Assembly: GCA_900549085.1 (NCBI GenBank)
Contig: URMO01000002.1
Coordinates: forward strand, 30,678 to 94,677
DNA: 64,000 nucleotides
Source: an uncultured Collinsella sp.
GTDB lineage: Bacteria; Actinomycetota; Coriobacteriia; Coriobacteriales; Coriobacteriaceae
Reading direction: 5' to 3'
Shown: positions 211 to 13,682 of the stretch, one piece after another
Numbering within the stretch: the first letter of the stretch is position 1
Layout of the letters: every line of letters starts with the position of its first letter
The notes under the pieces: model-generated
Database searches by the model: none
Seen by the model: only the letters and a program-made list of their open reading frames with translations
Told to the model about the DNA's origin: nothing
Translations under genes and position numbers: made by a program

Positions 211-259
211 ACGTTTATCAAAATTAACAGGTCACCAAGGAGTCAGAAACCCTCCTTGG
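211..259 (-). terminator. Candidate rho-independent terminator of the six-gene operon
   Basis: CCAAGGAG-GTTTCTGA-CTCCTTGG hairpin, followed on the minus strand by TGACCTGTTAATTTTGAT. Confidence 0.5.
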
Positions 260-297
260 CGACCCAAAACAGTTCATGAAAAGAGCGACCCGCTCTA

Positions 298-3200
298 TTA
301 GGCGGTAAGGAAAAGGTAGAAGAAGAACGCGCAGATACCAAAGCCAATCAGCATCACAATAAATCCGAAGATGCTAAGCAGCTGTGCAATGGTCACGATA
401 CCCCAGAGGAAAAACTCGATGACGATCGGCAGGATCCAAGAGAAAAGCCAGGTGCGAATCGACTTCGCACTACCGGGGTGAGCATCGTCTCCAAAGAGAA
501 GCATGACCGTCATACCACCGATGAGAATCGCCATTACTACGTCAAGCTTGGTAAACGTGTCGCCATCAACAAACATCGTTCCCATAAACCCAAAGGCGCT
601 GGTGACAAGCGGAACGAAAACGACCAAGCGGCCAGCATAGCGTCCCAGTCTGTCCATCAACTGCGGATCCATGTAAAACGCCGCCGGCGCACGACCACTT
701 GAAAATGCAAGCGAACCGACCTGAGCAAGAGGCTTGTCGTCTGCCGACATCGCAAGCTCCTCAAAAACCTGTCCCTTACGATCGGCAAACTCAACGAGCT
801 GGAGCAAATATCGTTCAAGCGCATCCGAATTGGCATCGATATCGTTCCTAAGCGCGCTAACACGATCGGCGGCCGAATAAGAGCGAAGAAGATTGAGAGC
901 GAGAAAACCAAAGCAGCCAATAAACGCAACCGCCAGGAAAATGCCCGCAAGCGGACCAAACGAACCCCAAGAAACAATCAGCTGACCAAAGGCACCACGG
1001 GAGCACATGATAAGGATGCAGTAAAGAATCGCCACAAGAACGGTGTACATCAAAACACCCCGCTGCTCCTTCTTTATGGCAGCAGCGCGAGCATCGCTAT
1101 CGGCAATACCCTCAACGACACCGTAATCGCGTGTATCCTGCTCGATAGCGGCCTTTAAGGAGCCGTCTGCAACACCGCGGCTATCCTCGAGGAACTCAGC
1201 ATATTCGGCAGAGGAGATCAAGCTTTCATCTGCAAGAAGCCTTACGCCACGAGCCGCGAGCAACCGCTCGTCAACGCCTTGGGATATGAGCTCGGCCACA
1301 TAGCCGCGTGGCACGGCATCGTCGCCGACCTGAGCGCAAAACAGCGCATTGCGCGTGCAGGGGCGCGTCCCGTGCTTTCCGTCGACTTCCCAGCCGTTCA
1401 CATACGGAACAGGCGTGAGCTCCATATCTTCCCGAAGCTTGATTCCCTCAAGACGCGCGTTGGAACCAGCCTGGATGAGCATGGAAACGGCAGTGTTTGC
1501 CGGCGGATTCAATCCGAGCAGGGCAATTTTAACCGCCTCGCCCACAGAGCCTTGGGCCGAGTCGTAGAGGTCGGTGTGGGCGGCAAGCCACAGCCAAGCA
1601 GCATAGCTACCAAACTTACGATAAAACGCGCGCACCGCCTTCTTATTGACCGCGACCTTATCCATATAATCGATCACGACATCTATATCGATGGCTCCGT
1701 GCGAAGTTGCCGCATCTCGAGCCGAGATAATTGCCGCCATCTCAGAAACGCCCGCAAAATTGAGCAAGAATTCATCCAGCTTGTGAGCCGACGAGCAAAC
1801 GCCAAAAAACGCCGCCGGACGATTAACAACCGACATAAGCACCGTCTGAGCAGCAGAACTTTTCTCCTCGTTGCGCGTCAGCAACCCCTTGAATAAACAA
1901 GCAGCGAAATGAGGATCACTCGAGTGCAGCGCCAACTTTTCGAGTTCATGAATATCGGCAGCAAGCTTTGCGCGTTCATCGTTGAGATCGTTGTCTTGAG
2001 AAAGAATGCGAGATAAAAATCCCGAAGGCAGCACGCCTGACGATTTTGACCCGTCGAGACCGGACAGGACGGCGTAGCGATCAATTTCGGTGACATCCAT
2101 CTTGGCGATGCGTGCCGGGAGGGCATCGCTCGCATCGGTGAGCGAGACGTCCTCGCCGCGCCACGACATAATCTTGCCGTTAGACATCTCATAGATGACG
2201 CAAGCAAGGGCCAAGTCGGGATTGGAAGCTGTCTGGATATCCTCTTCGACCAACTGGTGAATCCTGGTCTGCAGGTCATTTTCACCCCAGTCGCCCATCA
2301 GGTTTTCGAGCTGTTGCTGGCTCATGCGAAGCTTGGCCTCGTCCCAATTGGAGGACAGCGCGCGAGCGAGCAACACCGGATCGCTATACAGCTTGCCGGC
2401 AAACTCGTAAGGTTTGCGTGCGCTACCGGCATCCATGGTGGGAAGTTTGCGATAGAAATGATCTGGGTCGGCCATCCAGTCTTTGACCTCTTCGTAGCCA
2501 AAACGCTCGCCCGATAGCTCAAACGTCAGGCCCTTGAGGAGGTTTCCCAGGGTTGCATCATCTGGATGGTTAAAGTCCGCAGGCTCACCCGTCTCTTGGC
2601 GATCGGAAAGCGTATTGTCGTTTATGAACTCCTGCAGCGGATGGACATTGTTTTCGTAGAGCGTCCAGATCGTGTAGCCAAACGAATACCAGTCGTTTCG
2701 AGGGTCGACCATGCCACCACGACCGGGCGTGTAGCCGTCGGAGCGCGTCATGGTGTTCGTCAGTCGGCTGTCAAATCCGGCAAGCGAGCGGGCGGAGCCA
2801 TAATCTCCGAGCACGATCTGCTTGTCGTACAGGTAGACGTTCTGCGGCTTAATGTCACGATGGACAATGCCAAGCTCGGTATGGAGCAACTCGATTGCCT
2901 GGCTGAGCTCGGGAATCACGCGGCTCTTAACCATATTCTTGCTACGGGGACGATCAAAAAGGCATGTGGCCAGCGGCGTAATGGAAACATCCCACAGCTG
3001 AGGAGCCGCAGCACCCACTTCGGTCGCGCTCAGGCCCTGGTGCAGATAGGCAAAGATGGGCAGCAGATGCGTTTGAGACACGGGGCGGCCATTAAGCCCC
3101 ATTACGGCGCTTACCACCTTTTGATATGCCGAACGCTCGGCGCCCACAAGAGGCTTAAAAACCTTGGCAACGCATGCCAAACCATCGCTCACCCGCTCGG

Positions 3201-3798
3201 CGGCAACAATGGTAGATTGACCGCCATGGCCAATGACCTGTCCCAAATGAATAATAAACTGCTGTCCGTCATTCGAGACAACCGTCGCATTCTCCGCAAC
3301 AAAAGGCGAGGCAGATGCAGCGGCAGCATGTGCGCCCCCACGAGAAACGGTCACCGTTTCACCGTTGGGACTGGCCGTGGCGCCGCGCGAGACAGTTACC
3401 GTCTGGCCGTCGGGGCTCGCAGCGCGCGGCACCGTGACAGTTTCGCCTGCCGCAGAAGTACCAGGGCGTGAAACAGTAACGGTCTTGCCGTCGGCGGACG
3501 CACCAACAGACGGTCTCGCAACCGTTACTGTTTCACCATTCGATTCGGTCATCGGGCGATGCACCGTTACGGTTTCGTTTGTCGATGGCGCGTCGTCGCG
3601 GCGGACGGTGACCGTTTCACCAGATGCCGGAGCGTCAGCTCGACGTACCGTCACGGTCTCTCCAGGCGCAGAGGCCTGGTCGCCACGGTTCACGGTAACC
3701 GTCTCTCCCCCTACGGGCGCATTCCCGCGGCGCACCGTTACGGTCTCATCATTGCCATTGCCACCATCTCGGTGTACCGTAATCGTCTCATCAGACAT
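298..3798 (-). CDS. Membrane-anchored Ser/Thr protein kinase with 12 N-terminal ETVTV repeats; last gene of a six-gene coupled operon
   Basis: 1166 aa, ATG start with GGGGGAG SD. N-terminal 12x ~14-aa repeats ETVTVxRxxxxxxG. Hanks kinase motifs: G-loop GHGGQST, VAK lysine, HRDIKPQN catalytic loop, DYG, then a ~450-aa cytoplasmic helical region and >=6 C-terminal TM helices. Confidence 0.9.
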   Translation of the reverse strand: MSDETITVHRDGGNGNDETVTVRRGNAPVGGETVTVNRGDQASAPGETVTVRRADAPASGETVTVRRDDAPSTNETVTVHRPMTESNGETVTVARPSVGASADGKTVTVSRPGTSAAGETVTVPRAASPDGQTVTVSRGATASPNGETVTVSRGGAHAAAASASPFVAENATVVSNDGQQFIIHLGQVIGHGGQSTIVAAERVSDGLACVAKVFKPLVGAERSAYQKVVSAVMGLNGRPVSQTHLLPIFAYLHQGLSATEVGAAAPQLWDVSITPLATCLFDRPRSKNMVKSRVIPELSQAIELLHTELGIVHRDIKPQNVYLYDKQIVLGDYGSARSLAGFDSRLTNTMTRSDGYTPGRGGMVDPRNDWYSFGYTIWTLYENNVHPLQEFINDNTLSDRQETGEPADFNHPDDATLGNLLKGLTFELSGERFGYEEVKDWMADPDHFYRKLPTMDAGSARKPYEFAGKLYSDPVLLARALSSNWDEAKLRMSQQQLENLMGDWGENDLQTRIHQLVEEDIQTASNPDLALACVIYEMSNGKIMSWRGEDVSLTDASDALPARIAKMDVTEIDRYAVLSGLDGSKSSGVLPSGFLSRILSQDNDLNDERAKLAADIHELEKLALHSSDPHFAACLFKGLLTRNEEKSSAAQTVLMSVVNRPAAFFGVCSSAHKLDEFLLNFAGVSEMAAIISARDAATSHGAIDIDVVIDYMDKVAVNKKAVRAFYRKFGSYAAWLWLAAHTDLYDSAQGSVGEAVKIALLGLNPPANTAVSMLIQAGSNARLEGIKLREDMELTPVPYVNGWEVDGKHGTRPCTRNALFCAQVGDDAVPRGYVAELISQGVDERLLAARGVRLLADESLISSAEYAEFLEDSRGVADGSLKAAIEQDTRDYGVVEGIADSDARAAAIKKEQRGVLMYTVLVAILYCILIMCSRGAFGQLIVSWGSFGPLAGIFLAVAFIGCFGFLALNLLRSYSAADRVSALRNDIDANSDALERYLLQLVEFADRKGQVFEELAMSADDKPLAQVGSLAFSSGRAPAAFYMDPQLMDRLGRYAGRLVVFVPLVTSAFGFMGTMFVDGDTFTKLDVVMAILIGGMTVMLLFGDDAHPGSAKSIRTWLFSWILPIVIEFFLWGIVTIAQLLSIFGFIVMLIGFGICAFFFYLFLTA
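3350..3798 (-). repeat. Coding tandem repeat: 12 x ~42-45 nt units encoding ETVTVxRxxxxxxG
   Basis: Recurring quasi-palindromic GAAACGGTCACCGT / ACGGTGACCGTTTC cores. The antisense frame also reads TVTV, which creates the mirror ORF 3365..4003 (+). Confidence 0.9.
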
Positions 3799-3800
3799 GG

Positions 3801-4562
3801 CTACTCCCCCACTTCAATTACAATCAGCGTTGCATCGTCCGTCGAGCCGTTCACCCGAGCCTCGGCATATAGCTCTTCGCACAACTGCGCACATGTCGAA
3901 TCGCTCGCAAGCATCTGCTGCAAACGTTCCTGCGCAATCTGCCCATCGATACCATCAGAACAGATCAGATAGCGATCGCCCGGAAGCATCACGGTCGTCT
4001 TGACCTCAAGATTGCGACCGCCCTGATTGAGTCCAATCGCGAGCTCAATACAATGCGAAACGGCATCATCCCTGTATTCAGCGCCAACGCCGCCCACGCG
4101 CCGCTCAGGCGTATGGTCACAGCTAAGCACGGCAAGCACACCGCCACGCAGTCGGTACACGCGAGAATCGCCGGCATTAAAAACAGCACCGTGCCCGTCA
4201 GGAGCAACCACGAGGCCAGCAACCGTGGATGCGGCAACAGACAGTCCATAGCGAGCCGCATACGACTCAACATCGTTCTCGGCTCGCTCGCCCGCCATGC
4301 GTAGGCGCTCCTGTAACGCGTTGACGGTATCGGCCTCAAAGACGCGCACGGCCTGCGCAAACGCCTGAGCAGCAAGCGTCGAGGCGGCCGCTCCGTGCCC
4401 GCCTTCGCTCACACCGTCAAAGACTGCCATGCAGCCCATCTCGCGCTCGCCATCGCCTACCAGGCCATAGCAAAGGACGTTACCGTCAAGAAGCAAACGG
4501 TCCTCGTTGACGGGGTGATTGGTTCCCGCTTGAGTTTTTGCTGCAGCGATAAACTTCGTCAT
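3801..4562 (-). CDS. PP2C-family Ser/Thr protein phosphatase
   Basis: 253 aa from ATG (the ORF track's first codon is TTG). PP2C motifs NEDR, FDGVSEGGHG, DSR, DHT. Its ATG overlaps the TGA of the upstream AAA+ gene (ATGA), and its TAG is 2 nt before the kinase ATG. Confidence 0.85.
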   Translation of the reverse strand: MTKFIAAAKTQAGTNHPVNEDRLLLDGNVLCYGLVGDGEREMGCMAVFDGVSEGGHGAAASTLAAQAFAQAVRVFEADTVNALQERLRMAGERAENDVESYAARYGLSVAASTVAGLVVAPDGHGAVFNAGDSRVYRLRGGVLAVLSCDHTPERRVGGVGAEYRDDAVSHCIELAIGLNQGGRNLEVKTTVMLPGDRYLICSDGIDGQIAQERLQQMLASDSTCAQLCEELYAEARVNGSTDDATLIVIEVGE

Positions 4563-6514
4563 CGCCAATCGCCTCCCATCGATCCGGGCACGAGCTCAAA
4601 TGCGATATGCGCATCCTCGCCCTCGCCCTGCGGCACGGCGCGTGCAACCATGCCGGGACGACCACGCCACTCGGCGCGGTGCTCAAACAGAAAATCGGAA
4701 AGCCCGTTAAGGTAACCGCTCTCCACCAGGTTGCCAATGCCGCGGCCGCCCTTGGCCTTGACGGCGTCCGTCATGGCAATGGAGTGCAGCAGCTCGCGGG
4801 CGGCATCGGTCGCCTCAACCGTAATATCGGGCTGTGCCTTATGCACGTTGCGGTTAACGGCATCGATCTTGGAATTGAGGATCTGAAGCGCCACGGCGTC
4901 GTCGATAAAGTTAAAGATCACCACGTTGTCGCCAATACGGCCCAAGAACTCGGGCTTAAACTCGCGATCCATCTCGGTGCGCACGCGCTCGCAAATCTCG
5001 TTATAGGGCGTGTTGGGCGCGATTGTATTACGAACTTCGTTGCCCTGCGCATCGATCTCAATCTTGGAAAAGCCGATGTTGCTCGTAAAGAAGATGACCG
5101 TCTCAGAGAAGTACACGGTATTACCCTGGCCATCGGTCAGGCGGCCATCTTCGAGGATCTGCAGGAACTTGTCCATAATGCTGGGCGCGGCCTTCTCAAT
5201 CTCGTCGAAAAGAACCACCGAGAACGGATTGGCCTTGACCGCATTGGTCAGCTGACCGCCCTCGGCATAGCCCACGTATCCCGGAGGAGCACCAAAGAGC
5301 TTTTGATCGGAGTTCTCGGCACCGTACTCGGACATATCAAAACGCAGCATGCTGCGCTCATCGCCAAAGAGAAGCTCCGTAATGGCCTTAACGATCTCGG
5401 TCTTACCGGTACCAGTGGGACCGCTCAAAAACAGGACACCTTTGGGCTTGGAACCAGATGAATGGGTGGCGCCCGAAAGGCCCATAACGGAGCGCTTGAG
5501 CACGGTGACGGCCTTCTCGACGGCCTCGTCCTGGCCCTTCACGCGGCGCTTGATCTTTGCCTCGGGATCCTCTTCGGGTTTCTCGAACATCTGCTGCCAT
5601 TTGTTCTCGCGAAAACCGTACTTATACACGTCGACGAGCTTGGGAAGGATGGCATCGATGGAAGCATCGGGGTTTTGCATATCGCGCTGATACATGCGCT
5701 GCAGGCCTTCGAGCTCCTTAACGCTCATACCGTCGGTGGTGTCGATAAAGCGGCGCACCGCGCGGTTATCAGAATCGGACAGCGCCTCGCCAAAGCCAAA
5801 CTTGCTCTGAATATAGGCTTCGCGCATGTCGCGGTCGGGATGCGGCAGCGTGATGGTGCGCAAGAAGGGGTTCTCCTCGATAAACCACACGGGCAGGTTG
5901 CGCACGTTATCCGTTACAAGAATGAGCGTGTTGACAGCCGTGCGGTTAATAAGGCGTGCTTTGCTGGCGCCAAGGTACAAGTTGAGGAAAAACTGCGTCT
6001 CGTCGGGCATAAGACCGGTCGAGGATGCAAGCAGGCGCGACGCCATGTTGACGATCACACAAAGCGGCTTGGCCTCGGTGCCGCCATCGGGATTGTCGTT
6101 GTATTTCAGGCGCAGCATGGAGCGGATGACCTCGCCGTATGATGGCAGGCTCGACTGCTCGGTGGCATATGCTTGGCGGCCATCGGCGATGCAGGCGTTC
6201 GCCTCCATCATGCGGTCGTCGCTCTTGGAAGCCTCGTCATGGGCCAGCGACACCAGGCGTTTGCAATCGACGTTGCCCATGCTGCCCGAGAACAACTGGA
6301 TGGGGTCAAAATATGCCACGTTGTACTCAACTGAGCCATTGGCGTCTTCGAAAAGACCGCGCACAACCTCGGCAAGCTCCGAGAACTGAAGGCCGCCGTC
6401 AACCACATCGGGATACTTGTCGTTGACGTTGCCCTCAAGGATAAAGAGGCTCTTAACCCCTTTAAAGTTGAGCATCTCGCGCTGCCAAGATTGGCGCTCG
6501 AAATCAGTTGCCAT
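4559..6514 (-). CDS. ClpA/ClpB D2-type AAA+ ATPase with a degenerate Walker-less N-terminal half
   Basis: 651 aa. C-terminal half matches the ClpAB D2 signature: GPTGTGKTE Walker A, DMSEY...GAPPGYVGY, VVLFDEIEKA Walker B, FTSN sensor. The N-terminal ~330 aa has no Walker A. AAGGAGG SD; the ATG lies 3 nt after the TAA of the radical-SAM gene. Confidence 0.85.
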   Translation of the reverse strand: MATDFERQSWQREMLNFKGVKSLFILEGNVNDKYPDVVDGGLQFSELAEVVRGLFEDANGSVEYNVAYFDPIQLFSGSMGNVDCKRLVSLAHDEASKSDDRMMEANACIADGRQAYATEQSSLPSYGEVIRSMLRLKYNDNPDGGTEAKPLCVIVNMASRLLASSTGLMPDETQFFLNLYLGASKARLINRTAVNTLILVTDNVRNLPVWFIEENPFLRTITLPHPDRDMREAYIQSKFGFGEALSDSDNRAVRRFIDTTDGMSVKELEGLQRMYQRDMQNPDASIDAILPKLVDVYKYGFRENKWQQMFEKPEEDPEAKIKRRVKGQDEAVEKAVTVLKRSVMGLSGATHSSGSKPKGVLFLSGPTGTGKTEIVKAITELLFGDERSMLRFDMSEYGAENSDQKLFGAPPGYVGYAEGGQLTNAVKANPFSVVLFDEIEKAAPSIMDKFLQILEDGRLTDGQGNTVYFSETVIFFTSNIGFSKIEIDAQGNEVRNTIAPNTPYNEICERVRTEMDREFKPEFLGRIGDNVVIFNFIDDAVALQILNSKIDAVNRNVHKAQPDITVEATDAARELLHSIAMTDAVKAKGGRGIGNLVESGYLNGLSDFLFEHRAEWRGRPGMVARAVPQGEGEDAHIAFELVPGSMGGDWR

Positions 6515-6517
6515 GTG

Positions 6518-7114
6518 TTATACCTCCTTGGCAGAAAATTCATGGTGGTAACGGTCGGCAATACCAACGGTGATAACCGTGCCGTCCTGGACATAGTTTT
6601 GAAGCTGACGAGGCTGTTGAAGATACTGGTCGTAATCATCGTGTGGGCGGTCGCTCAGGTAGATTACGCGCTGGTTAGTCGAGCCGCGCAGCGCACAATC
6701 GGGCACGTTGAGCTCGTTTACGTACGGACCGTCAATCAGCACATCGATAAGAGACTTAAGCGTCTCCCACGTATCCGCACCGATCACCTGCGGCAACTCT
6801 TCGAGCGTAAATCCGGTGTAAACGAGAATGTCATCGTAAGCGCAGCGGATCGTTGCCAGTAGCTTCACGAGCTCTGATGCCTGCTCGAGCGGATCTCCAC
6901 CCGAAACCGTCAGCCGATGTACGCCGTGCTCGCGCGCGGTATCGAGCAACATCTGCGCAAGCTCATCAACATCGACATCCTGCTCGGGCAGCTGGTTGCG
7001 CCATTGGGGCGAAATACATCCGGCACAACGCTTTGAACAACCAGCGGTCCAGACAACAATACGTTCTCCCGGACCCAGCGAGACGACGGGGGCAAGCACA
7101 TGGCTAACGAACAT
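6518..7114 (-). CDS. NrdG/PflA-like radical-SAM activating enzyme (4Fe-4S single-cluster family), orphan
   Basis: 198 aa from internal ATG (MFVSHVL...). CSKRCAGCISPQW follows the CxxxCxxC pattern and the NrdG-like GC..C.GC.N...W shape; SGGDPL SAM-binding motif. The ATG overlaps the TAG stop of the upstream FHA gene. No glycyl-radical enzyme gene is nearby. Confidence 0.75.
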   Translation of the reverse strand: MFVSHVLAPVVSLGPGERIVVWTAGCSKRCAGCISPQWRNQLPEQDVDVDELAQMLLDTAREHGVHRLTVSGGDPLEQASELVKLLATIRCAYDDILVYTGFTLEELPQVIGADTWETLKSLIDVLIDGPYVNELNVPDCALRGSTNQRVIYLSDRPHDDYDQYLQQPRQLQNYVQDGTVITVGIADRYHHEFSAKEV

Positions 7115-8084
7115 CGGCGTAATCCTCGCCCGGATCGAGTGTACGGTACACGGCCGAGATACGTGCAAGCGAGCAACCGCATTCCTCACAGCCATCCCCA
7201 ACCTTTGCACGCTCATCAGCAACGAGATGCAAACGACCGCACTCGGGGCACTCGACAAACCAGCCCTCGACACCCGCAGACTCACCAGCAGCAGAAACAA
7301 CCGGTGCCGCAGCAGACGCGGGCTGAGGCGCAGACCAAGCCTGGGTCTGCACGGGTTGCGCCGCAGGCGGTTCCTCCACAGTAACCGTCAGACGCAATTG
7401 GGCAAATTCGCCAGACGCAGCCGGAATGAGTAGCGTATCGCCGGTATGAATCGGCTGGGCCACGCCGGGAACCAAGTTGAGGATCTGGCCGCCACGCATA
7501 AGAGCCGTTCCGTTATTGGACCCCTCATCGGCAACCATCCATGTGCCCCGCTCAAAACGAACGCTGGCATGCTGCCGGGACATGGCAAAGTTCGAAGCCA
7601 TAGAAGGAAACACGTTGCGTCCAAGCACGGCAGCGTCCGTGAGACGAAGCTGCTCACCCATAACTGGATCGGCAAGCGTAAGCGCAGGAACCGCAGGAGT
7701 AGCTGCAGCATTCGCCATGGGCTGCGGCATTGGCGCAGGCGTCGGCCGTGGCGCAGCAACCGGAGCAGGTTGTGGAACGGGCATGGGGGTAGGCTGCGGC
7801 GTGGGAGCAGGAACAGCCTGATGTGCCTGCTGGGGCGCGGGACGCTGAGGCCGCGAAGCACCGCCCATCGATGATGTCGCAGGATAGACGGCGGGAGCCG
7901 GACGCTCAGCGACCGCGGCGGCAAAGCCGGACACTGAGGCGGCTGGCACCTCGGGTGCCGAGACCGCGGGCGCAGGGGCCGAAGGCGCGGGAACCGCACC
8001 AGCGGGACGCGGCGTCCCGCAGTCCTCGCACATATCGCGGGCATCATCGTTCATAAGACCACAGATAGGGCATTCCCATGTCAT
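7104..8084 (-). CDS. FHA-domain protein flanked by N- and C-terminal zinc ribbons
   Basis: 326 aa. N-terminal CPICG...CEDCG, a Pro/Ala-rich linker, an FHA core (GRN...SRQHA...GSNNGT...N), and C-terminal CPECG...CEECGC. The ATG lies 3 nt after the TAA of the upstream 525-aa gene; GAGG SD. Confidence 0.8.
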   Translation of the reverse strand: MTWECPICGLMNDDARDMCEDCGTPRPAGAVPAPSAPAPAVSAPEVPAASVSGFAAAVAERPAPAVYPATSSMGGASRPQRPAPQQAHQAVPAPTPQPTPMPVPQPAPVAAPRPTPAPMPQPMANAAATPAVPALTLADPVMGEQLRLTDAAVLGRNVFPSMASNFAMSRQHASVRFERGTWMVADEGSNNGTALMRGGQILNLVPGVAQPIHTGDTLLIPAASGEFAQLRLTVTVEEPPAAQPVQTQAWSAPQPASAAAPVVSAAGESAGVEGWFVECPECGRLHLVADERAKVGDGCEECGCSLARISAVYRTLDPGEDYADVR

Positions 8085-8087
8085 GGT

Positions 8088-9563
8088 TTACCTCATTTCC
8101 CTTTGCTTGAGCTGGCTTGCTTGACGGCGATTACGCAGGCGACGCTCCGCATCTGCGGAAGGCGTGGGCGGCACGTAATCGTGCGGGTGAATCTCGACGG
8201 CGGTCTGGGGATCAGCGGGTCGAACAAAATGACCAGGGGCGTCGGACGCGACAACAACGCCGCGTTCTTTAAGGTCTTCCTTAAACTGCTGGTAAAAATC
8301 GCAGAACTCAACTTGGTCCTGAACGACTTTGTCGACCGTCGCTTGATCTTGGGCTTTCATATCTTTGATGATGGTGGGGTTAACCGGATCTTCCGAAAAC
8401 TCGGATGGATCGGCCTCGACAACTCGCATCACAAGCTGCTGTTCGTGCGATCCCTTAAGGACGGCAACCGCCTTGCGCTTGTTCGTGTCGAAGATAAGGC
8501 GCCACGGCTTGCCAGACCCATCCATAACCGCATAACGGACAACGTCAGCCCCGTGTTCGGCCATAACCTCGTTAACGCAGCGCTCGATGTATTCGTCTTT
8601 AGCCGCCGAAGCAAGCGCGGCGTCTGCGGCATCCACGGCAGCGTACAAATCCTCAATCTCATGAGGCCGCCTGAGCACCGTCGGACGATGATAGCGTTCA
8701 TTAAGAAGATCAACGCGCAGGCGGTATTCCTCATACTGCTCATGAAGCTCATTCGACTCATGCTGAGCGCTTTTCATCACATGCTCGAAGTCCTTGAGAA
8801 TCTTCATGGCGGCAAGGCGCTGTTCCTCGCTCGAATCCGGACCAAGCGCGCTAAACGAAGCACGGGCGGTCTCGAATTTTGCACTTAGGCGATTTCGCAA
8901 CGTCATATCGAGCACCTCATCCTGCATAAGCGGGATAATGCGCGCCGCCCACTCTTCAAACGCGCGCGCTGCATCCTCAAAGGAACCCGCCGAGGAGCTT
9001 GCGGCGGTGTCCGCAATATGCAAGAGCGCTTTCTCGAGGTCGATGGAACCGTCGCGGGCAACGTCGTAATCGATTGCCTTTAGGAGACCCTGGGTCCTGA
9101 GCTTTTCGGACGTCTGCGCGGCATCGATACGGCTCTGGCCCATCTCTGCCCTGCGATGGGTATGGGCATCGAAAGTTAACGTCGGAATCAGAGTGTGAAG
9201 CGTCGCCGCCAGCTGAGCCAACGCCGACTCAGTTCGAATCCGCGTCACCGTGCCTCGACCCATGACGATCTCTTCGCCCACAAGCGGTCCCGTCACGTTT
9301 TTCCTCGAATATTCGTCAATCACGCTATCCAACGCGGCGCGTGTCGACTCATCCATATCGGGAAACTCAAGGAGCATCTGCGACTTGATGTCCAATAGCC
9401 CATGCCTATAGTCCTTAACGGCATTTTCTGCCTCGGCCTTCTCCGCCTCAATGCGCAACGCCGCTGCCCCGGCAACAATTGCAGCGGGGGCCAATGGCAC
9501 TGCCAGCGGTGAAGTGGCTATTCCGGCAGCGACTACAAAATTATCTCCCACCGAGCCGCTCAT
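8088..9563 (-). CDS. Hypothetical protein, first gene of the coupled operon
   Basis: Long ORF (525 aa from an upstream TTG; ~491 aa from ATG MSGSVGDNF, which has an AAGGGAA SD). One N-terminal hydrophobic segment; no recognisable domain. Start is uncertain. Confidence 0.5.
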   Translation of the reverse strand: MSGSVGDNFVVAAGIATSPLAVPLAPAAIVAGAAALRIEAEKAEAENAVKDYRHGLLDIKSQMLLEFPDMDESTRAALDSVIDEYSRKNVTGPLVGEEIVMGRGTVTRIRTESALAQLAATLHTLIPTLTFDAHTHRRAEMGQSRIDAAQTSEKLRTQGLLKAIDYDVARDGSIDLEKALLHIADTAASSSAGSFEDAARAFEEWAARIIPLMQDEVLDMTLRNRLSAKFETARASFSALGPDSSEEQRLAAMKILKDFEHVMKSAQHESNELHEQYEEYRLRVDLLNERYHRPTVLRRPHEIEDLYAAVDAADAALASAAKDEYIERCVNEVMAEHGADVVRYAVMDGSGKPWRLIFDTNKRKAVAVLKGSHEQQLVMRVVEADPSEFSEDPVNPTIIKDMKAQDQATVDKVVQDQVEFCDFYQQFKEDLKERGVVVASDAPGHFVRPADPQTAVEIHPHDYVPPTPSADAERRLRNRRQASQLKQREMR

Positions 9564-9753
9564 TGTCACGTTCCCTTCTTCATGGATAACGGGGCCATCC
9601 CGGTCATCAAGCGTTTTTACTGCCTCATTTCTACCGCCGTCTTGCGCGATTCTGTTGCGCAACATTGGCGAGTGGCAGATTTGTCGATGTTGCGCAACAG
9701 AAGGCAGCGGCTAGCGCATATCCTGCTAATGGAAGAAAGGATGAAAGCGCGCC

Positions 9754-11001
9754 ATGACCGGATCCTACGAAGAAGTTCGACTCGTCAAGTTTCATACGCC
9801 AGCACTGCTCTCCGAGCGTGAGCAGGCCGCGGCACGGCGTCGCTTTTGCACGCTTCTCGTTCCGCCGCAAAAGGGCGGCTTTGGCGGCAACGCCTATGTC
9901 CGCCGCGTCCAGAGCGGCGATCGCGCTTTTGAGCTCGCGCTTAAGATGCCGCGCCCCGATGCCCAGCCCGAGCAAGAACAGCTCAACCGAGAAACTTTGG
10001 AAGAGGAGTACCGCACGCTCTCCGTCGTATCCAACCTAAGGGGTTTTCCCGATGTCTATGGTTTTGGCTACACGGCAGACGGAACCCCGGCACTGCTCAT
10101 GGAGTGGGTTGATGGCGTCTCGCTTCTTGATGCACGGCGGGCTCTGAGTGATGGCGCTGAAACCTGCCCCGGTGATATCGTCGCCGCGCTGGGTCTGAGC
10201 GTGCTCAAGATCATCTTGTCCACGCAATCGCTCGACACGCCCTTTGTTCACCGCGACCTCTCCATGCGCAACATCATGCTGCGTCACGATCGCATCCCGC
10301 TCGAGGAGCAGGTCTCGAGTGGCTATTTCGACATCTGCCTGATCGATATGGGCAGTGCAAAACTCGTTAAGCCCGATTTTTCCTTTACCGTCGACGTCAA
10401 CGCTTTTCGCGGCGCCACGCCGGCATACGCGGCACCCGAAATGCTGGAGCGGTTTAAGGCCGACCCCGGTGCGCGCGACAATCCCGCCGTCGACATCTAT
10501 GCGCTGGGAAGCATCCTCTACGAGCTTTATTGCGGACGCGCCCCCTTTGAGGCGGAGCTCAGGCGCTCTGGAGATCACGCGCGTCTCAAGCGCACCGTGC
10601 AGCCGCAACCCCTTACGCCCGCAACTCCCCGCGAACAGGGCTTGGTCAACGCGATTATGGCTTGTTTGGCAGTCTCGCAAGACGCACGCCCTTCGGCAAA
10701 TGAACTCGCGGCGCGCCTTGAGCCTTTCGCCCGTACGGGTGCCCCGCGAAAGCACCGGCCCGTGGCGGATCGCGGCAGCGCTACCGTGCGGGTGGATGCC
10801 ACCGTCCCCACCCGCACGGTTGCACAGGTGCAGCCCGCGTCTCGACCAGCCCCATCCACCGAGACCGTCCGCAGCGCCGAGTCCATGCGTCGCGCGCGCC
10901 TTGCCGTCAAACGTCAACGCACGATAGCACTCACGATGGTGATTGTTGCCCTGGCAGCAATCGTGGTCATACTCGTCCTCGCATCTGCCGGCATGCTTTA
11001 G
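9754..11001 (+). CDS. Ser/Thr protein kinase with C-terminal TM anchor
   Basis: 415 aa. Motifs GGFGGNAY, ALK, HRDLSMRN, DMG, YAAPE; Pro-rich linker and a C-terminal TM helix. Divergent from the six-gene operon. Confidence 0.85.
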   Translation: MTGSYEEVRLVKFHTPALLSEREQAAARRRFCTLLVPPQKGGFGGNAYVRRVQSGDRAFELALKMPRPDAQPEQEQLNRETLEEEYRTLSVVSNLRGFPDVYGFGYTADGTPALLMEWVDGVSLLDARRALSDGAETCPGDIVAALGLSVLKIILSTQSLDTPFVHRDLSMRNIMLRHDRIPLEEQVSSGYFDICLIDMGSAKLVKPDFSFTVDVNAFRGATPAYAAPEMLERFKADPGARDNPAVDIYALGSILYELYCGRAPFEAELRRSGDHARLKRTVQPQPLTPATPREQGLVNAIMACLAVSQDARPSANELAARLEPFARTGAPRKHRPVADRGSATVRVDATVPTRTVAQVQPASRPAPSTETVRSAESMRRARLAVKRQRTIALTMVIVALAAIVVILVLASAGML

Positions 11002-11040
11002 CCGGCAGTAAAACCAAAGTCAGCAAATAGACCCATTTGC

Positions 11041-11088
11041 AAAAAGCGGTGGCGGGCGCAACTCTCAATAAAGCCGCGCCCGCCACCG
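11041..11088 (-). terminator. GC-rich terminator hairpin between convergent kinase and zinc-ribbon genes
   Basis: GCGGTGGCGGGCGC ... GCGCCCGCCACCG 13-bp stem, followed by a TTTTTG run on the minus strand. Confidence 0.55.
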
Positions 11089-11121
11089 TCCCCATGCATC
11101 GCACGCTGACAATACGAGGTA

Positions 11122-12366
11122 CTAGGAAATCAAAAGCTCAAAGGAATCCGTGATGCGCGTTCCCATGTTAACGGCGCCGTCTCCCGATTCGACTGTGGTA
11201 TTCAGGTAGTACTTGCCATTTTTCTTTTTAGGTACACCCGTAACCGTAAGGTCGCAGTCCTCCTCCTCGACGGGAAGCGAAAACTCAAAACCCTTGTTTC
11301 TAACAAACGTACCGGTGACGTCCGTGTAGGTGCGATAGTCGTCACCATCGGATTGGGCGACGGTTTTTTCGGCGTTGTAGGTATCGTGGGCATGCAGCGT
11401 GGCCGAGATGTCTGCGACCGCTTCGCCGGAATCGCTGATGCTCTTAAACACAATCACAAGGTCGTTTTTGCTCGCGCCGTAGCAAGTATGGCCCCAAGAG
11501 TTGCCCGTCTCCTTAAGTGATCCGCGCCACGTGGTGTTGGCAAAGCTCGTGGGCTTATCGATGTTGAGCTTCGCTGTGCTACCAGAGGTCGTAGTGGTCG
11601 ACGAGGTCGCATTGCCCGTCGTGGAAGAGCCCTCGGCATTGGAGCTGGCGTCCTCGCCGTTCTTGCTTGCGGTCTTGAGCTCTGCCTTAGCATCCTTAAG
11701 GTCGGACTTTGTCTGATCGAGCTCGTCTTGCGTTTTTGTGAGTTCGTCCTTGGAAGATTCAAGCTGCTTCTTGAGCTTTTGAATCTGCTCCGTATTTTGC
11801 GGATGAGCCAAACCATATGAGTAGCCCGCCCAGCCGGTTCCCGCGCACAAGGCGGCAACGACAATAACGCCGGCGGCGATGGCGGGCGCATACGACTTGC
11901 CCAGGCGCTTGCGTGCCAGCTTGTACTCGGCCTTGGCCGTCTTGAGGCTCTCGCGGTCCTGCTCGAGCTGCTCTTCCTCACTGAGCGGCGTAGAACCAAA
12001 ATCGGCATGGCAGGCAGGCTCAGTTTCCACGTCCTCGATCGTAGTGCCAAAGTCTGACAAGGGATCGACTACACGCGTGGCGTCCGAATCGGATTCGGGC
12101 ACAGCGGGCTCAAACGCGCCGGGTGCCGCCACCGGCTGCTCGTCTGCTTTCGAGGCAGCATCCGCCTTAGGCAACTCCACCGTTGCCGCCGTAGCGGCCT
12201 CGCCGTCGCGCCAAGAAAAGGCAGGGCTTTGCGACACGGTCTGGGGCGTAGTATAGGGATCTTCGGAAACGGGCGCAGTCGACGAGGGCGCGGCAAGAGG
12301 CGATCCACACTCAGAGCAAAAACTAGCGTCATCGGTCAACAATGCACCGCAATAAGGGCATTCCAT
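11122..12366 (-). CDS. Zinc-ribbon / TM / coiled-coil membrane protein with extracellular C-terminal domain
   Basis: 414 aa. N-terminal CPYCG...CSECG zinc ribbon, acidic linker, TM helix (IAAGVIVVAALCAGTGWAGY), a QKLKKQLESSKDELTKTQDELDQTKSDLKDAKAEL coiled coil, a Ser/Thr-rich linker and a C-terminal domain. Confidence 0.7.
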   Translation of the reverse strand: MECPYCGALLTDDASFCSECGSPLAAPSSTAPVSEDPYTTPQTVSQSPAFSWRDGEAATAATVELPKADAASKADEQPVAAPGAFEPAVPESDSDATRVVDPLSDFGTTIEDVETEPACHADFGSTPLSEEEQLEQDRESLKTAKAEYKLARKRLGKSYAPAIAAGVIVVAALCAGTGWAGYSYGLAHPQNTEQIQKLKKQLESSKDELTKTQDELDQTKSDLKDAKAELKTASKNGEDASSNAEGSSTTGNATSSTTTTSGSTAKLNIDKPTSFANTTWRGSLKETGNSWGHTCYGASKNDLVIVFKSISDSGEAVADISATLHAHDTYNAEKTVAQSDGDDYRTYTDVTGTFVRNKGFEFSLPVEEEDCDLTVTGVPKKKNGKYYLNTTVESGDGAVNMGTRITDSFELLIS

Positions 12367-12549
12367 AGGGCACGACCTCTCAAAATGTGTCGTTTGCAGC
12401 CATCCTGCAACTTGGCGTATCTGCCCTATAATGTCTCAATAGTTATGCAAAGCGTTGCGCAACATTTTTCGAGTCGGTACGCTTTGAGCGTAGCCATTAT
12501 TTCCTATCATGTTTGCAGTACGTCATTAAAGTTATCTGGGGAGGCAGCC

Positions 12550-13512
12550 ATGGCGGCGGAAACACCGTGCTCGGTCCTCTACAACGACATCCGATCGTTC
12601 GGCGGTCTCAAGCATCTCGAGATTGCGCGAATGCTCATTAACGGCAATTCGTATGCAGGCAGTACCCTGCTCGACAAATGCTCTACCAACCGCTCGTACC
12701 TCACTCGCTACATCGTCCACCGCGAGCCCGATCAGTGTGCGCCAGGTATCTACAATGACCTTACCGTCTCCACGCTTAACCTTGCCGCCGCCATTAGTAA
12801 CAAGCTCGGCGGAGGCGATCGCGCCTATCAGGAAATATCCGAGCATTACAGCGGCCCGGCGGCCCAAGGCATGATGTCGGCTCTCGCCGATTATGACCTC
12901 GACGACCGCCTCTACGCCAATGCCTTGGGGCGTATCAACAGCTCCGATGACCACGGCCCCCGCGAAAAAAGCACGCTCTTCTTGATGCTCTTTGTGGCAA
13001 CGGGCGCACTTGCCGACCCCGTACAAGGCGTGGCCACCGTCGAGCGCTTTTGCGACAGCAAGACGGGCGGGCACTTTGGCACCACCGAAACTACCGTCGG
13101 ACGTGGCTTTATGGGCAGCCTGGAGCAGCCGCGCACCGTTGCCCCCAACCTCGGTCTGCTCAGGACACATGCCGACAACTGCGTCGACATGCAAATCCAT
13201 CCCCTCACACGCGATCCGCGCGGCACCGTGATTGGTTCTTTGCCCAAAACTTCGCCCAGCATCACCGATGTGGGTGCCGATGCATCGCGCGAGCATCTTC
13301 GCATTTGGCTTGAGGGTGAGCGCTGGTACGCCCAGGGCCTTGGATCGACCAACGGCACGGTGCTCGAATCGGGTGCAGGCGACGGCGATACCGTAATCGA
13401 GCCGCCCCGTGACCAACGAGAGCCCGGCAAAGTCTATCCCCCCGTGGAAATCGCTAACAGTGACAGACTTCATTTGGGTCTCTATACAACGTTTCTCGTT
13501 ATTGTGGACTAG
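12550..13512 (+). CDS. FHA-domain protein (C-terminal FHA), N-terminal domain unknown
   Basis: ATG with GGGGAGG SD (the ORF-track start at 12229 is a 5' over-extension). C-terminal ...GERWYAQGLGSTNGTVL...L fits an FHA core. Confidence 0.7.
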   Translation: MAAETPCSVLYNDIRSFGGLKHLEIARMLINGNSYAGSTLLDKCSTNRSYLTRYIVHREPDQCAPGIYNDLTVSTLNLAAAISNKLGGGDRAYQEISEHYSGPAAQGMMSALADYDLDDRLYANALGRINSSDDHGPREKSTLFLMLFVATGALADPVQGVATVERFCDSKTGGHFGTTETTVGRGFMGSLEQPRTVAPNLGLLRTHADNCVDMQIHPLTRDPRGTVIGSLPKTSPSITDVGADASREHLRIWLEGERWYAQGLGSTNGTVLESGAGDGDTVIEPPRDQREPGKVYPPVEIANSDRLHLGLYTTFLVIVD

Positions 13513-13682
13513 CGCGTAGAGACGTGGGAAACAGGTGTCACTCGTCTTATATCATTTACGTTGCGCGCTGCACTATAAATAGCAATACGAGTCAGCTTAT
13601 CGGCGAACACGTCTATCATGGGCTTTAATCGATAATCGCGTTCTCGGCGTGAGCACGCGGCCCCACCAAATGAAGGAACGTC

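Follow-up and report, generated by a model that had tools for sequence, protein, structure and literature searches.

A conserved gene cassette of Collinsella and other bacteria joins threonine-phosphosignalling genes to an AAA+ protein and an NrdG-like radical-SAM enzyme

We consider here six consecutive open reading frames (ORFs) on the minus strand, at 298-9665 of a 64,000-nucleotide (nt) stretch of DNA from an uncultured Collinsella sp. (contig URMO01000002.1), the whole of which is called the window below. In the order of reading they encode a protein of 525 amino acids (aa) as annotated (8088-9665), for which Pfam, NCBIfam and PADLOC gave no match and which we call h525; an FHA/zinc-ribbon adaptor of 326 aa (7104-8084; Pfam FHA, E = 9.8e-6, and Zn_ribbon_RanBP); an NrdG-like radical S-adenosylmethionine (radical-SAM) enzyme of 198 aa (6518-7114; Fer4_12, 2.3e-29, and Radical_SAM); an AAA+ protein of 651 aa (4559-6514; AAA_2, ClpB-D2-like, over aa 356-527 only); a PP2C-type Ser/Thr phosphatase of 253 aa (3801-4562; PP2C_2 and SpoIIE, Stp1-like at 2.1e-22); and a Hanks-type Ser/Thr kinase (STK) of 1166 aa (298-3798; Pkinase). 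A preliminary description made from the letters alone had listed the six in this order and at these positions, and all of them were found.

The junctions are tight, and four of them read just as that description gave them: TAA, 3 nt and ATG both from h525 to the adaptor and from the radical-SAM to the AAA+ gene, an ATGA overlap between the AAA+ and phosphatase genes, because of which we place the phosphatase start at the ATG at 4562 and not at an upstream TTG, and TAG, 2 nt and ATG from the phosphatase to the kinase. For the fifth, described as an ATG overlapping the TAG of the adaptor gene, the overlap is real and measures 11 nt, with the radical-SAM ATG at 7114 (ATGTTCGTTAG), but the ATG immediately after that TAG is out of frame. 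A fixed stoichiometry, which that description thought probable from such junctions, is conjectural. Purine runs resembling Shine-Dalgarno (SD) sequences (GAGG, GAGGA, AAGGAGG, GGGAGG and GGGGGAG) lie 5-14 nt 5' of the five internal starts, so the SD claimed for every gene holds for these and fails for the first, which has none at 9665. Since, in addition, its homologues begin at Met35 (MSG..., ~9563), the true start of h525 is probably there, giving a protein of ~491 aa. Because two stable stem-loops directly follow the kinase stop (229-296, minus strand; RNA folding dG -34.6 kcal/mol, z -4.29 against 200 shuffles), we place the likely end of the operon after the kinase, and transcription probably terminates at these hairpins; their T-tract is weak and a simple terminator scan did not flag them, while a sigma-70 promoter scan returned chance-level matches only.

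The two halves of the AAA+ protein look to be of different descent. The C-terminal half (4559-5524; AAA_2, 4.1e-51) is a ClpB-D2-type ATPase ring, and because its Walker A, Walker B, GAPPGYVGY pore loop, sensor 1, Arg finger and sensor 2 are kept in at least 90% of 90 family members, it should be an active, substrate-threading ring. The N-terminal half (aa 1-330; 5525-6514) is a degenerate classic-clade AAA+ domain, an AAA+ fold lacking the P-loop with a conserved EGNxxD loop in the position of Walker A; its profile matches only classic-clade AAA proteins (VCP-like, spastin, Vps4 and p97), in a stretch that takes in the last part of the core as well as the lid, and no family in Pfam, NCBIfam or PADLOC covers it. 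As the N-terminal profile leads to classic AAA proteins while the C-terminal half is of ClpB-D2 type, the protein is, to judge by its profiles and motifs, a chimera of the two. The earlier reading of an active D2 ring alone, preceded by a Walker-less half, agrees with the intact D2 motifs and the missing P-loop.

Models of ClpB, ClpV and ClpA match only the D2 region, far under their family cutoffs: the ClpB equivalog TIGR03346 scores 238.2 bits against a cutoff of 1232.1, and ClpV/TssH (TIGR03345) 218 bits against 884.95, with residues 319-614 aligned to model positions 562-840 only. Whereas the ClpB/Hsp104 disaggregases have two active rings, an N-domain and a middle domain, the N-terminal half of the cassette protein is without Walker A, and, unlike Hsp100 unfoldases, the protein lacks the N-terminal Clp domain, the middle domain and the ClpP-binding loop. 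It resembles in parts ClpB/ClpV and in parts the AAA+ proteins of Pex6/FtsHi type, which have one inactive ring; in contrast to ClpB, Hsp104 and ClpV and to Pex6/FtsHi, its halves would come from different clades, a classic-AAA-like N-terminal half and an HCLR-clade D2. The stretch 'ESGYLNG' near its C-terminus was considered as a radical loop and rejected, as alignment to ClpB D2 places it in the sensor-2 region. Two distant relatives are recorded here for completeness. In locus L006 (80-2786; JGI metagenome 3300042643) a distant AAA+ gene is broken by a stop after 'FDMSE' and resumes in an ORF at 2303-2785, which reflects either a sequencing or assembly error or a pseudogene. In L100/L101 (8897-10618), from a Lachnospiraceae metagenome-assembled genome (MAG), a short FHA ORF is immediately followed by a very distant homologue of the N-terminal half (20% identity), and the two are not separated by a radical-SAM gene; a resolvase lies just upstream and the contig ends inside the AAA+ gene.

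The best NCBIfam match of the radical-SAM enzyme is NrdG (TIGR02491), to which it aligns over model positions 13-153 of 154 at 96.9 bits against a cutoff of 126.1 (PRK11121: 67.9 against 199); it falls under every activase cutoff, those of NrdG and PflA included, and no relative in the PDB was found by sequence. The family motifs are LGPGxR..W..GC.K.C..C, T..GG.P..Q, tGy, lidG.y and a C-terminal GS.NQ, among which the CxxxCxxC, the activase-type GPGxR and the GS.NQ are at least 90% conserved in 68 family sequences. At the level of sequence the enzyme is less like QueE or viperin than like the activating enzymes, which abstract hydrogen from a glycine residue of a protein. It shares with the NrdG/PflA activases its size, its fold class (Fer4_12 and a partial radical-SAM barrel) and these three motifs, and it differs from them in being always coupled to the AAA+ gene, in a C-terminal extension of ~45 aa, in having no glycyl-radical enzyme nearby, and in occurring on plasmids of aerobic or facultative Proteobacteria.

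The absence of a glycyl-radical partner, already noted in the preliminary description, extends to the related loci. No nrdD or pfl gene and no glycyl-radical enzyme lies near any of ~110 loci, a search of 2131 neighbouring ORFs for the C-terminal glycyl-radical signature (R[IVTL]xG[FWY]) returned spurious small ORFs only, and the genes scanned over the window's first ~16 kb include no class III ribonucleotide reductase. That description had also held that orthologues placed beside nrdD or pfl would speak against the cassette as a unit; none was so placed, and they are co-conserved with kinase/FHA genes instead. Further candidates for a glycyl-radical protein were tried and discarded. The second zinc ribbon of the adaptor and the R-I-A-x-I strand after it recall the C-terminal zinc-ribbon/glycyl-radical domain of NrdD and contain no invariant glycine; h525 has a conserved M-x3-G-Y and nothing like RVxG[FWY]; and the 711-aa minus-strand ORF at 42778-44913, considered as NrdD, is RNase R (PDB 8cdu, E = 1.4e-112). 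As a separate observation, L083 carries on its minus strand (2820-6636), ~3 kb from its main cassette, a second NrdG-like radical-SAM gene (189 aa, 32% identical), which lies between a classic AAA ATPase (548 aa; PF00004 and AAA_lid_3) and a 515-aa helix-hairpin-helix protein.

The signalling proteins likewise keep their catalytic motifs, the kinase HRD, DFG Asp and APE in 32 family members and the metal-binding Asp motifs of the phosphatase in 34. The kinase begins with a Thr-rich region (3319-3798) of ten TVTV repeats, mostly ETVTV, and one TITV, an amplification of the motif to 10-11 copies; then come the kinase domain at aa ~180-450, a long helical part and a C-terminus that is polytopic in the membrane. 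In Adlercreutzia orthologues two PT[IL]VD motifs stand at the position of the Collinsella repeats, in the Coriobacteriia loci L082 and L083 one or two ETV/QTV motifs precede the kinase domain, and the two clostridial orthologues examined (L089 and L092) have no such Thr motifs. FHA domains prefer a particular residue at the third position after the phospho-threonine, and because both the T-x-x-V of Collinsella and the T-x-x-D of Adlercreutzia fit such a preference, the repeats are candidate phospho-threonine docking sites for the FHA domain. The adaptor itself consists of an N-terminal RanBP-type zinc ribbon, a Pro/Ala-rich linker, the FHA domain at aa ~167-220 and a C-terminal CxxC...CxxC ribbon. 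In most subfamilies this second ribbon is followed by an R/K-[IV]-[AS]-x-[IV] strand, and the ribbon and strand together stand N-terminal or C-terminal to the FHA domain.

Helices make up most of h525, and towards its C-terminus come a small conserved alpha/beta domain and a basic tail; its AlphaFold2 model (pLDDT 59.8) consists mostly of helices and a four-strand sheet at aa 375-417, and structure prediction followed by a fold search gave no informative relative. Among the profile and structure checks proposed in the preliminary description, that of the AAA+ N-terminal half led to classic AAA proteins, that of the radical-SAM enzyme to NrdG as best family match, and that of h525 to no relative of use.

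The same set of genes recurs far from Collinsella. The AAA+ N-terminal half served as marker for the family searches; word-indexed searches with this half and with a 30-sequence profile gave 4 and 12 proteins, mostly fragments, and an exhaustive search was used instead. HMMER over 1.84 billion representative proteins (50% clustering) found 347 relatives at E<=1e-3, nearly all two-domain proteins of 600-670 aa, and 453 turned up among GTDB genomes sampled at one per species; the alignments used for locus scanning were pruned of overly diverse members. Full-length members cluster into three main clades, and the family also matches a cyanobacterial plasmid. Twelve non-Collinsella genome loci were kept (Coriobacteriales, six Adlercreutzia, Eggerthellaceae, a Clostridiaceae MAG and a Ruminiclostridium MAG), and in all twelve the radical-SAM, AAA+, phosphatase (where present) and kinase genes keep that order and are preceded by an FHA/zinc-ribbon gene and a gene for a ~470-510-aa protein. 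The phosphatase gene is absent from loci of the Adlercreutzia type (Adlercreutzia and Eggerthellaceae) and so is dispensable there. An iterated hidden Markov model search from the h525 alleles found the h525 family in 46 loci, these twelve among them.

A metagenome scan was seeded with the largest AAA+ clade, whose context had previously been unread, and gave 47 loci with a complete AAA+ gene and flanks. BLAST alone placed a radical-SAM gene nearby in 44 of the 47, a phosphatase in 36 and a kinase in 36; the apparent absence of the kinase in one of them, L104, is an oversight of BLAST, as the Pkinase domain is present. The gene just 5' of the radical-SAM gene carries an FHA domain in 17 of 21 non-redundant metagenome loci, with a vWA match at this position in one of 21 proteins. 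Radical-SAM and AAA+ genes are adjacent in 48 metagenome pairs, at a median spacing of -4 nt, and this pair is, as far as gene order tells, the evolutionary core of the cassette. The whole cassette is also present on a 44-kb plasmid of a cultured rumen bacterium, Aristaeella lactis WTE2008, where it covers ~23.3-32.9 kb of the record NZ_CP069422 and the genes are an STK, an h525-family gene, FHA, radical-SAM, AAA+, PP2C, a DUF6273 protein and a second kinase, with a DUF4011 helicase adjoining; the h525 homologue is there a 430-aa 'hypothetical protein' (E = 9e-47). The range of the cassette thus reaches beyond high-GC Actinobacteria to Clostridia, a plasmid and metagenomic lineages; a search of deposited phage genomes gave no match. 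Because the gene set recurs in all twelve non-Collinsella loci and most of the 47 metagenome loci, the arrangement is far beyond chance, and the co-conservation of AAA+ and radical-SAM orthologues with STK, PP2C, FHA and the ~500-aa protein, which the preliminary description had asked about, is found across Coriobacteriia, Clostridia and metagenomes.

The pair also occurs in other company. A third AAA+ clade, ~36% identical to the window protein over its full length, is found in IMG/VR contigs and on plasmids, in cassettes with the order MkoA-like SF1 helicase, ~720-aa PIN-annotated protein, ~370-aa unknown protein, AAA+ and radical-SAM (L097 1573-12811; L099 2229-12810; and L183-L185, i.e. 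NC_008758, NZ_CP093250 and NZ_CP032284). MkoA and MkoB are the helicase, sometimes with an STK domain, and the nuclease of the anti-phage system Mokosh type I. The sister helicases match the PADLOC MkoA model at E = 1e-99 and 9e-96, and the PIN protein gives a weak MkoB match (L097, L185). The Firmicute version has an RNase III-like gene after the radical-SAM gene. In L097 a serine recombinase and a helix-turn-helix gene precede the cassette, and we assign that of L099 to a (Firmicute) prophage because terminase small and large subunits and a portal follow it; in the prophage the cassette lies between the end of the lysogeny genes and the terminase. Plasmid copies occur in Polaromonas (pPNAP02), in Moellerella, where MOBH conjugative plasmids have the cassette next to ArdA and an integrase gene, and in Acinetobacter, where it adjoins an insertion sequence on the NDM-1 plasmid pNDM1_010055; the pair is found, too, in plasmids of aerobes and facultative Proteobacteria (Acinetobacter, Polaromonas, Rhizobium). 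Weak PADLOC pVip matches are confined to radical-SAM proteins of the distant clade. We found no description of this sister cassette in the literature; it looks like a variant of Mokosh with accessory genes. Since AAA+ and radical-SAM are the only genes common to the six-gene and the helicase/PIN architectures, we regard the pair as the presumptive functional engine, joined to alternative input and output modules. For the same reason we consider three candidates for the substrate of the radical-SAM enzyme: the AAA+ protein itself (with invariant G28, G74 and G300), a polypeptide threaded by it, or a small molecule.

Within Collinsella the genes of the cassette differ greatly in how they vary. 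Exact sequence matches and the genome scan assign the window to the aerofaciens group of this genus. In the related Collinsella locus L002 (16317-21956) the conserved genes run on past what corresponds to the window start, with four same-strand genes for proteins of 208, 413, 301 and 354 aa, none with a Pfam family, the first of which starts near window position 199; the first two are called d208 and d413 here. The AAA+ protein differs little over 78 Collinsella loci, at 96-99% identity (synonymous divergence dS 0.19, dN/dS 0.02), and the genes flanking the cassette are 95-98% identical, with dS of 0.05-0.12. In contrast, h525 falls into identity classes of ~97-100, ~59 and ~49% (dS >2), its N-terminal ~190 aa being hypervariable and not alignable between allele classes, and the kinase into classes of ~99, ~77 and ~62% (dS 0.7-2.2); the classes of the FHA protein are ~93 and ~66%, and those of d208 ~99, ~54 and ~82-92%. 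Both d208 and d413 reach dS >2 in one allele class and share the allele mosaic of the cassette. There are recombinants: in L050 the h525 is of class B and the kinase of class A, and in L033 h525 and the FHA gene are of class C and the kinase of class B. Because the synonymous divergence is so high (0.7 to >2) against that of the flanks, we consider h525, the kinase, d208 and d413 to be old, discrete alleles, which by this pattern recombine independently around a constant AAA+ gene. Two of the four downstream proteins have an N-terminal transmembrane segment and then an apparent repeat region, recognised by eye. Beyond the four genes, ~4 kb downstream of the cassette, lie two genes with a TIR domain, one fused to a methyltransferase (PADLOC TIR, E = 5e-11) and one to DUF4357. 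In L104 (15850-19516) an ATPase resembling HerA (864 aa; DUF87/HerA_C) is encoded 3' of the cassette, as is a protein whose toxin domain is a papain-fold glutamine deamidase (PF15644, 2.6e-14).

How does the cassette compare with systems already described? In the threonine-phosphorylation pathway of type VI secretion systems (T6SS), the kinase PpkA, the PP2C phosphatase PppA and Fha1 act with the AAA+ protein ClpV/TssH. The cassette is alike in that a Hanks kinase, a PP2C and an FHA protein (Pkinase, PP2C_2 and FHA) are encoded together with an AAA+ protein of Clp/Hsp100 type, whose D2 half matches that of TssH (218 bits), and in that a membrane kinase is the presumed input. It is unlike in that its AAA+ protein has a degenerate classic-AAA half in place of the ClpV N-domain and active D1, and the T6SS pathway has no counterpart of the radical-SAM partner or of h525. 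The adaptor scores 22.7 on the TagH model (TIGR03354) against a cutoff of 120.25, and the scans of neighbouring genes, which took in the window's first ~16 kb and a selection of related loci, recognised no structural gene of T6SS (TssA-M, Hcp or VgrG) or of type VII secretion (T7SS). The T6SS likeness drawn in the preliminary description therefore stands as shared kinase/PP2C/FHA/Clp-like logic without T6SS genes, an analogy and not membership.

Mokosh type I is alike in that a distant AAA+/radical-SAM pair is encoded right after its MkoA-like helicase and PIN/MkoB-like protein; unlike it, the window cassette has neither helicase nor nuclease, and described Mokosh systems have neither AAA+ nor radical-SAM. 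The best PADLOC match of the window kinase is to the kinase part of the MkoA model (1.4e-14), a generic domain match, and the window holds no MkoA and MkoB together. The TerY-P triad, a validated defence system, consists of the vWA protein TerY, a PP2C and an STK; it is alike in joining kinase and phosphatase to a phospho-dependent or adaptor third part in a compact cassette, and both are candidates for immunity by a phosphorylation switch. The cassette differs from it in that its adaptor has FHA and zinc ribbons and no vWA, and in its additional AAA+, radical-SAM and h525 proteins. As for Dodola and PDC-M37, the AAA+ D2 matches DolB (2.3e-18) and PDC-M37B (7e-28), with no DolA or PDC-M37A match in the cassette. 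Neither the system nor the h525 family nor the AAA+ N-terminal half has a model in Pfam, NCBIfam or PADLOC. The preliminary description had not recognised the combination as a described system, and we concur: to judge by these models and by the open-access papers and preprints searched, it is new as a system, though assembled from known domain families.

We tentatively favour, with a confidence somewhat short of even, a reading of the cassette as a phospho-threonine-gated AAA+ unfoldase/radical-SAM machine working in conflict, that is, in defence against phages or mobile elements. The catalytic motifs are intact, the core pair is obligately coupled and is reused in Mokosh-like mobile cassettes, the whole cassette is borne by a plasmid in one case, TIR, HerA and toxin genes are among the neighbours, and the alleles in Collinsella are structured as described; together these features suggest such a role to us. 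A conflict or defence module was among the alternatives raised in the preliminary description, and the paralogous pair in Mokosh-like plasmid and prophage cassettes, along with the old discrete alleles, lends it support. Under this reading, the membrane kinase would use its variable non-kinase part to sense a cue from the envelope or from infection, and would autophosphorylate its own Thr-rich N-terminal repeats. The zinc-ribbon/FHA adaptor might then dock on the phospho-threonines and recruit, or release, the AAA+/radical-SAM pair, with the phosphatase resetting the switch. The AAA+ ring would thread a protein, and the activase-type enzyme would take a hydrogen from, or otherwise modify, the protein substrate, while the hypervariable ~500-aa h525 perhaps gives target specificity or is itself the substrate. 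The steps of this signal flow, the substrate and the defensive role are all inferred from what the families are known to do. A stronger form of the proposal, that the cassette represents a new immune class in which threonine phosphorylation licenses the activase-like enzyme and the AAA+ protein to radicalise or modify a threaded protein, the same engine serving as an add-on to Mokosh-like systems, we hold to be unlikely; we know of no protein-directed radical effector or sensor step in described defence systems.

Several observations weigh against a defensive function. In all 68 species-level Collinsella genomes retrieved the cassette occupies one fixed syntenic chromosomal position; a core cellular role would explain this and the housekeeping-like constraint on the AAA+ protein as readily as defence would. 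The dN/dS of the alignable parts of the divergent alleles is only 0.1-0.2, and the variation looks like long-lived allele replacement with no demonstrable positive selection. No recognisable toxin or nuclease effector is encoded in the six-gene version, and no conserved glycine that could carry a radical was found in h525 or in the tail of the FHA protein. PADLOC gave generic single-domain matches only (kinase and Clp-like ATPase), and we found no published description of the cassette in open-access papers and preprints, although subscription journals may hold one. Lastly, one subclade (L082, L133-L137 and L147) has an FtsK/SpoIIIE ATPase of 1100-1200 aa downstream, which hints at secretion.

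The last point leads to a second explanation, rather unlikely in our judgement though the best placed of the alternatives, that the cassette is a housekeeping switch in which kinase, phosphatase and FHA protein gate the AAA+ motor of an envelope or secretion apparatus and the variable proteins are surface-exposed or secreted. Type VII secretion offers a parallel in EssC, which bears FHA, and T6SS one in Fha1/PpkA/PppA/ClpV. Synteny in every Collinsella genome retrieved, the extreme purifying selection on the AAA+ protein, the polytopic membrane kinase and the downstream membrane proteins, two with apparent extracellular repeats (by eye), would all be expected of it, and old balanced alleles are seen in surface or secreted proteins as well. 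The genes of the FtsK-bearing subclade (L133 10656-16560; L082 17202-20795; also L135, L137 and L147) point the same way: in L133 the kinase is followed by membrane proteins (one of VTT/DedA type), an 86-aa protein with a W-R-G motif, the FtsK/SpoIIIE ATPase and three helical proteins of ~89 aa, and the single-domain FtsK/SpoIIIE together with the 86-aa WxG protein (motif by eye) gives a likeness to type VII (ESX/Ess) secretion. Such genes are, however, limited to this subclade, none being found in the window, in Collinsella, in Adlercreutzia, in Clostridia or in the plasmid copy, and neither Pfam WXG100 nor YukD matches the small proteins of L133 or the downstream genes of Collinsella. Together with the lack of any recognised T6SS/T7SS structural gene in the regions scanned, this argues against the idea, which also leaves the radical-SAM partner and the plasmid and prophage pairs with helicase and PIN proteins unexplained.

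Less probable still, and quite improbable, is that the cassette, under regulation, matures or repairs a radical enzyme of anaerobic metabolism, glycyl-radical or other, whose gene is unlinked. The NrdG-like activase would then install the radical, with the AAA+ protein as its chaperone, and the kinase would tie the process to the growth state. There is a precedent in the benzylsuccinate synthase operons, where the putative ATPase BssE has been proposed as a chaperone beside the activase BssD. The closeness of the radical-SAM enzyme to NrdG over its whole length with the activase-specific motifs kept, the origin of the STK-type cassettes characterised here in anaerobic gut and rumen lineages, and a threading pore loop suited to protein remodelling are in keeping with this idea. 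It sits poorly with ~110 loci devoid of a glycyl-radical enzyme or its signature, with scores under the NrdG, PflA and other activase cutoffs, and with pairs that accompany a helicase and a PIN protein in a prophage and on plasmids of aerobes and facultative Proteobacteria; hypervariable partner genes, moreover, are unexpected for a metabolic maturase. The view that nrdG, a clpB fragment and paralogues of pknB/pstP/fhaB lie side by side by chance and do not act together, which the commonness of each domain family in Actinobacteria and the further STK/FHA genes adjoining in Collinsella might suggest, deserves almost no credence, being already refuted by order, overlaps and content conserved across phyla, a plasmid and metagenomes and by scores that miss all family-specific NCBIfam cutoffs by wide margins.

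Whichever function applies, the cassette unites Hanks kinase/PP2C/FHA signalling, Hsp100-type unfoldases and glycyl-radical-type activases, and it is widespread, being common in human-gut Coriobacteriia and Clostridia and present on mobile elements. Activase chemistry would have a new, non-metabolic use if the AAA+/radical-SAM pair does act on protein. If the conflict reading is right, the cassette would bring a new effector logic to bacterial immunity and would account for the accessory genes on Mokosh-like cassettes of clinically relevant plasmids, including one with NDM-1. The old recombining alleles of Collinsella offer a natural handle on specificity, and the question is directly testable, because the cultured Aristaeella lactis WTE2008 has the whole cassette and proteobacterial plasmids have the sister one.

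Some neighbouring genes may bear on the extent of the system. Upstream of the cassette, and syntenic in all Collinsella loci, lies a divergent phosphosignalling cluster at 9754-15767, consisting of an STK (9754-11001, plus strand), a zinc-ribbon protein (11122-12366, minus), an FHA protein (~12550-13512, plus) and an STK with a C-terminal DUF6273 domain (13683-15767, plus). Because a standalone DUF6273 protein lies within the Aristaeella plasmid cassette (L182 11657-13171), this cluster may perhaps be functionally linked to the cassette. In another subclade, with L106 (16816-18481) and L119 (16989-18669), the kinase gene is followed by conserved genes for proteins of 349 and ~200 aa and then by one for an acidic protein of ~91 aa; the CxxC...C of the ~200-aa protein may be an anti-sigma-type zinc finger.

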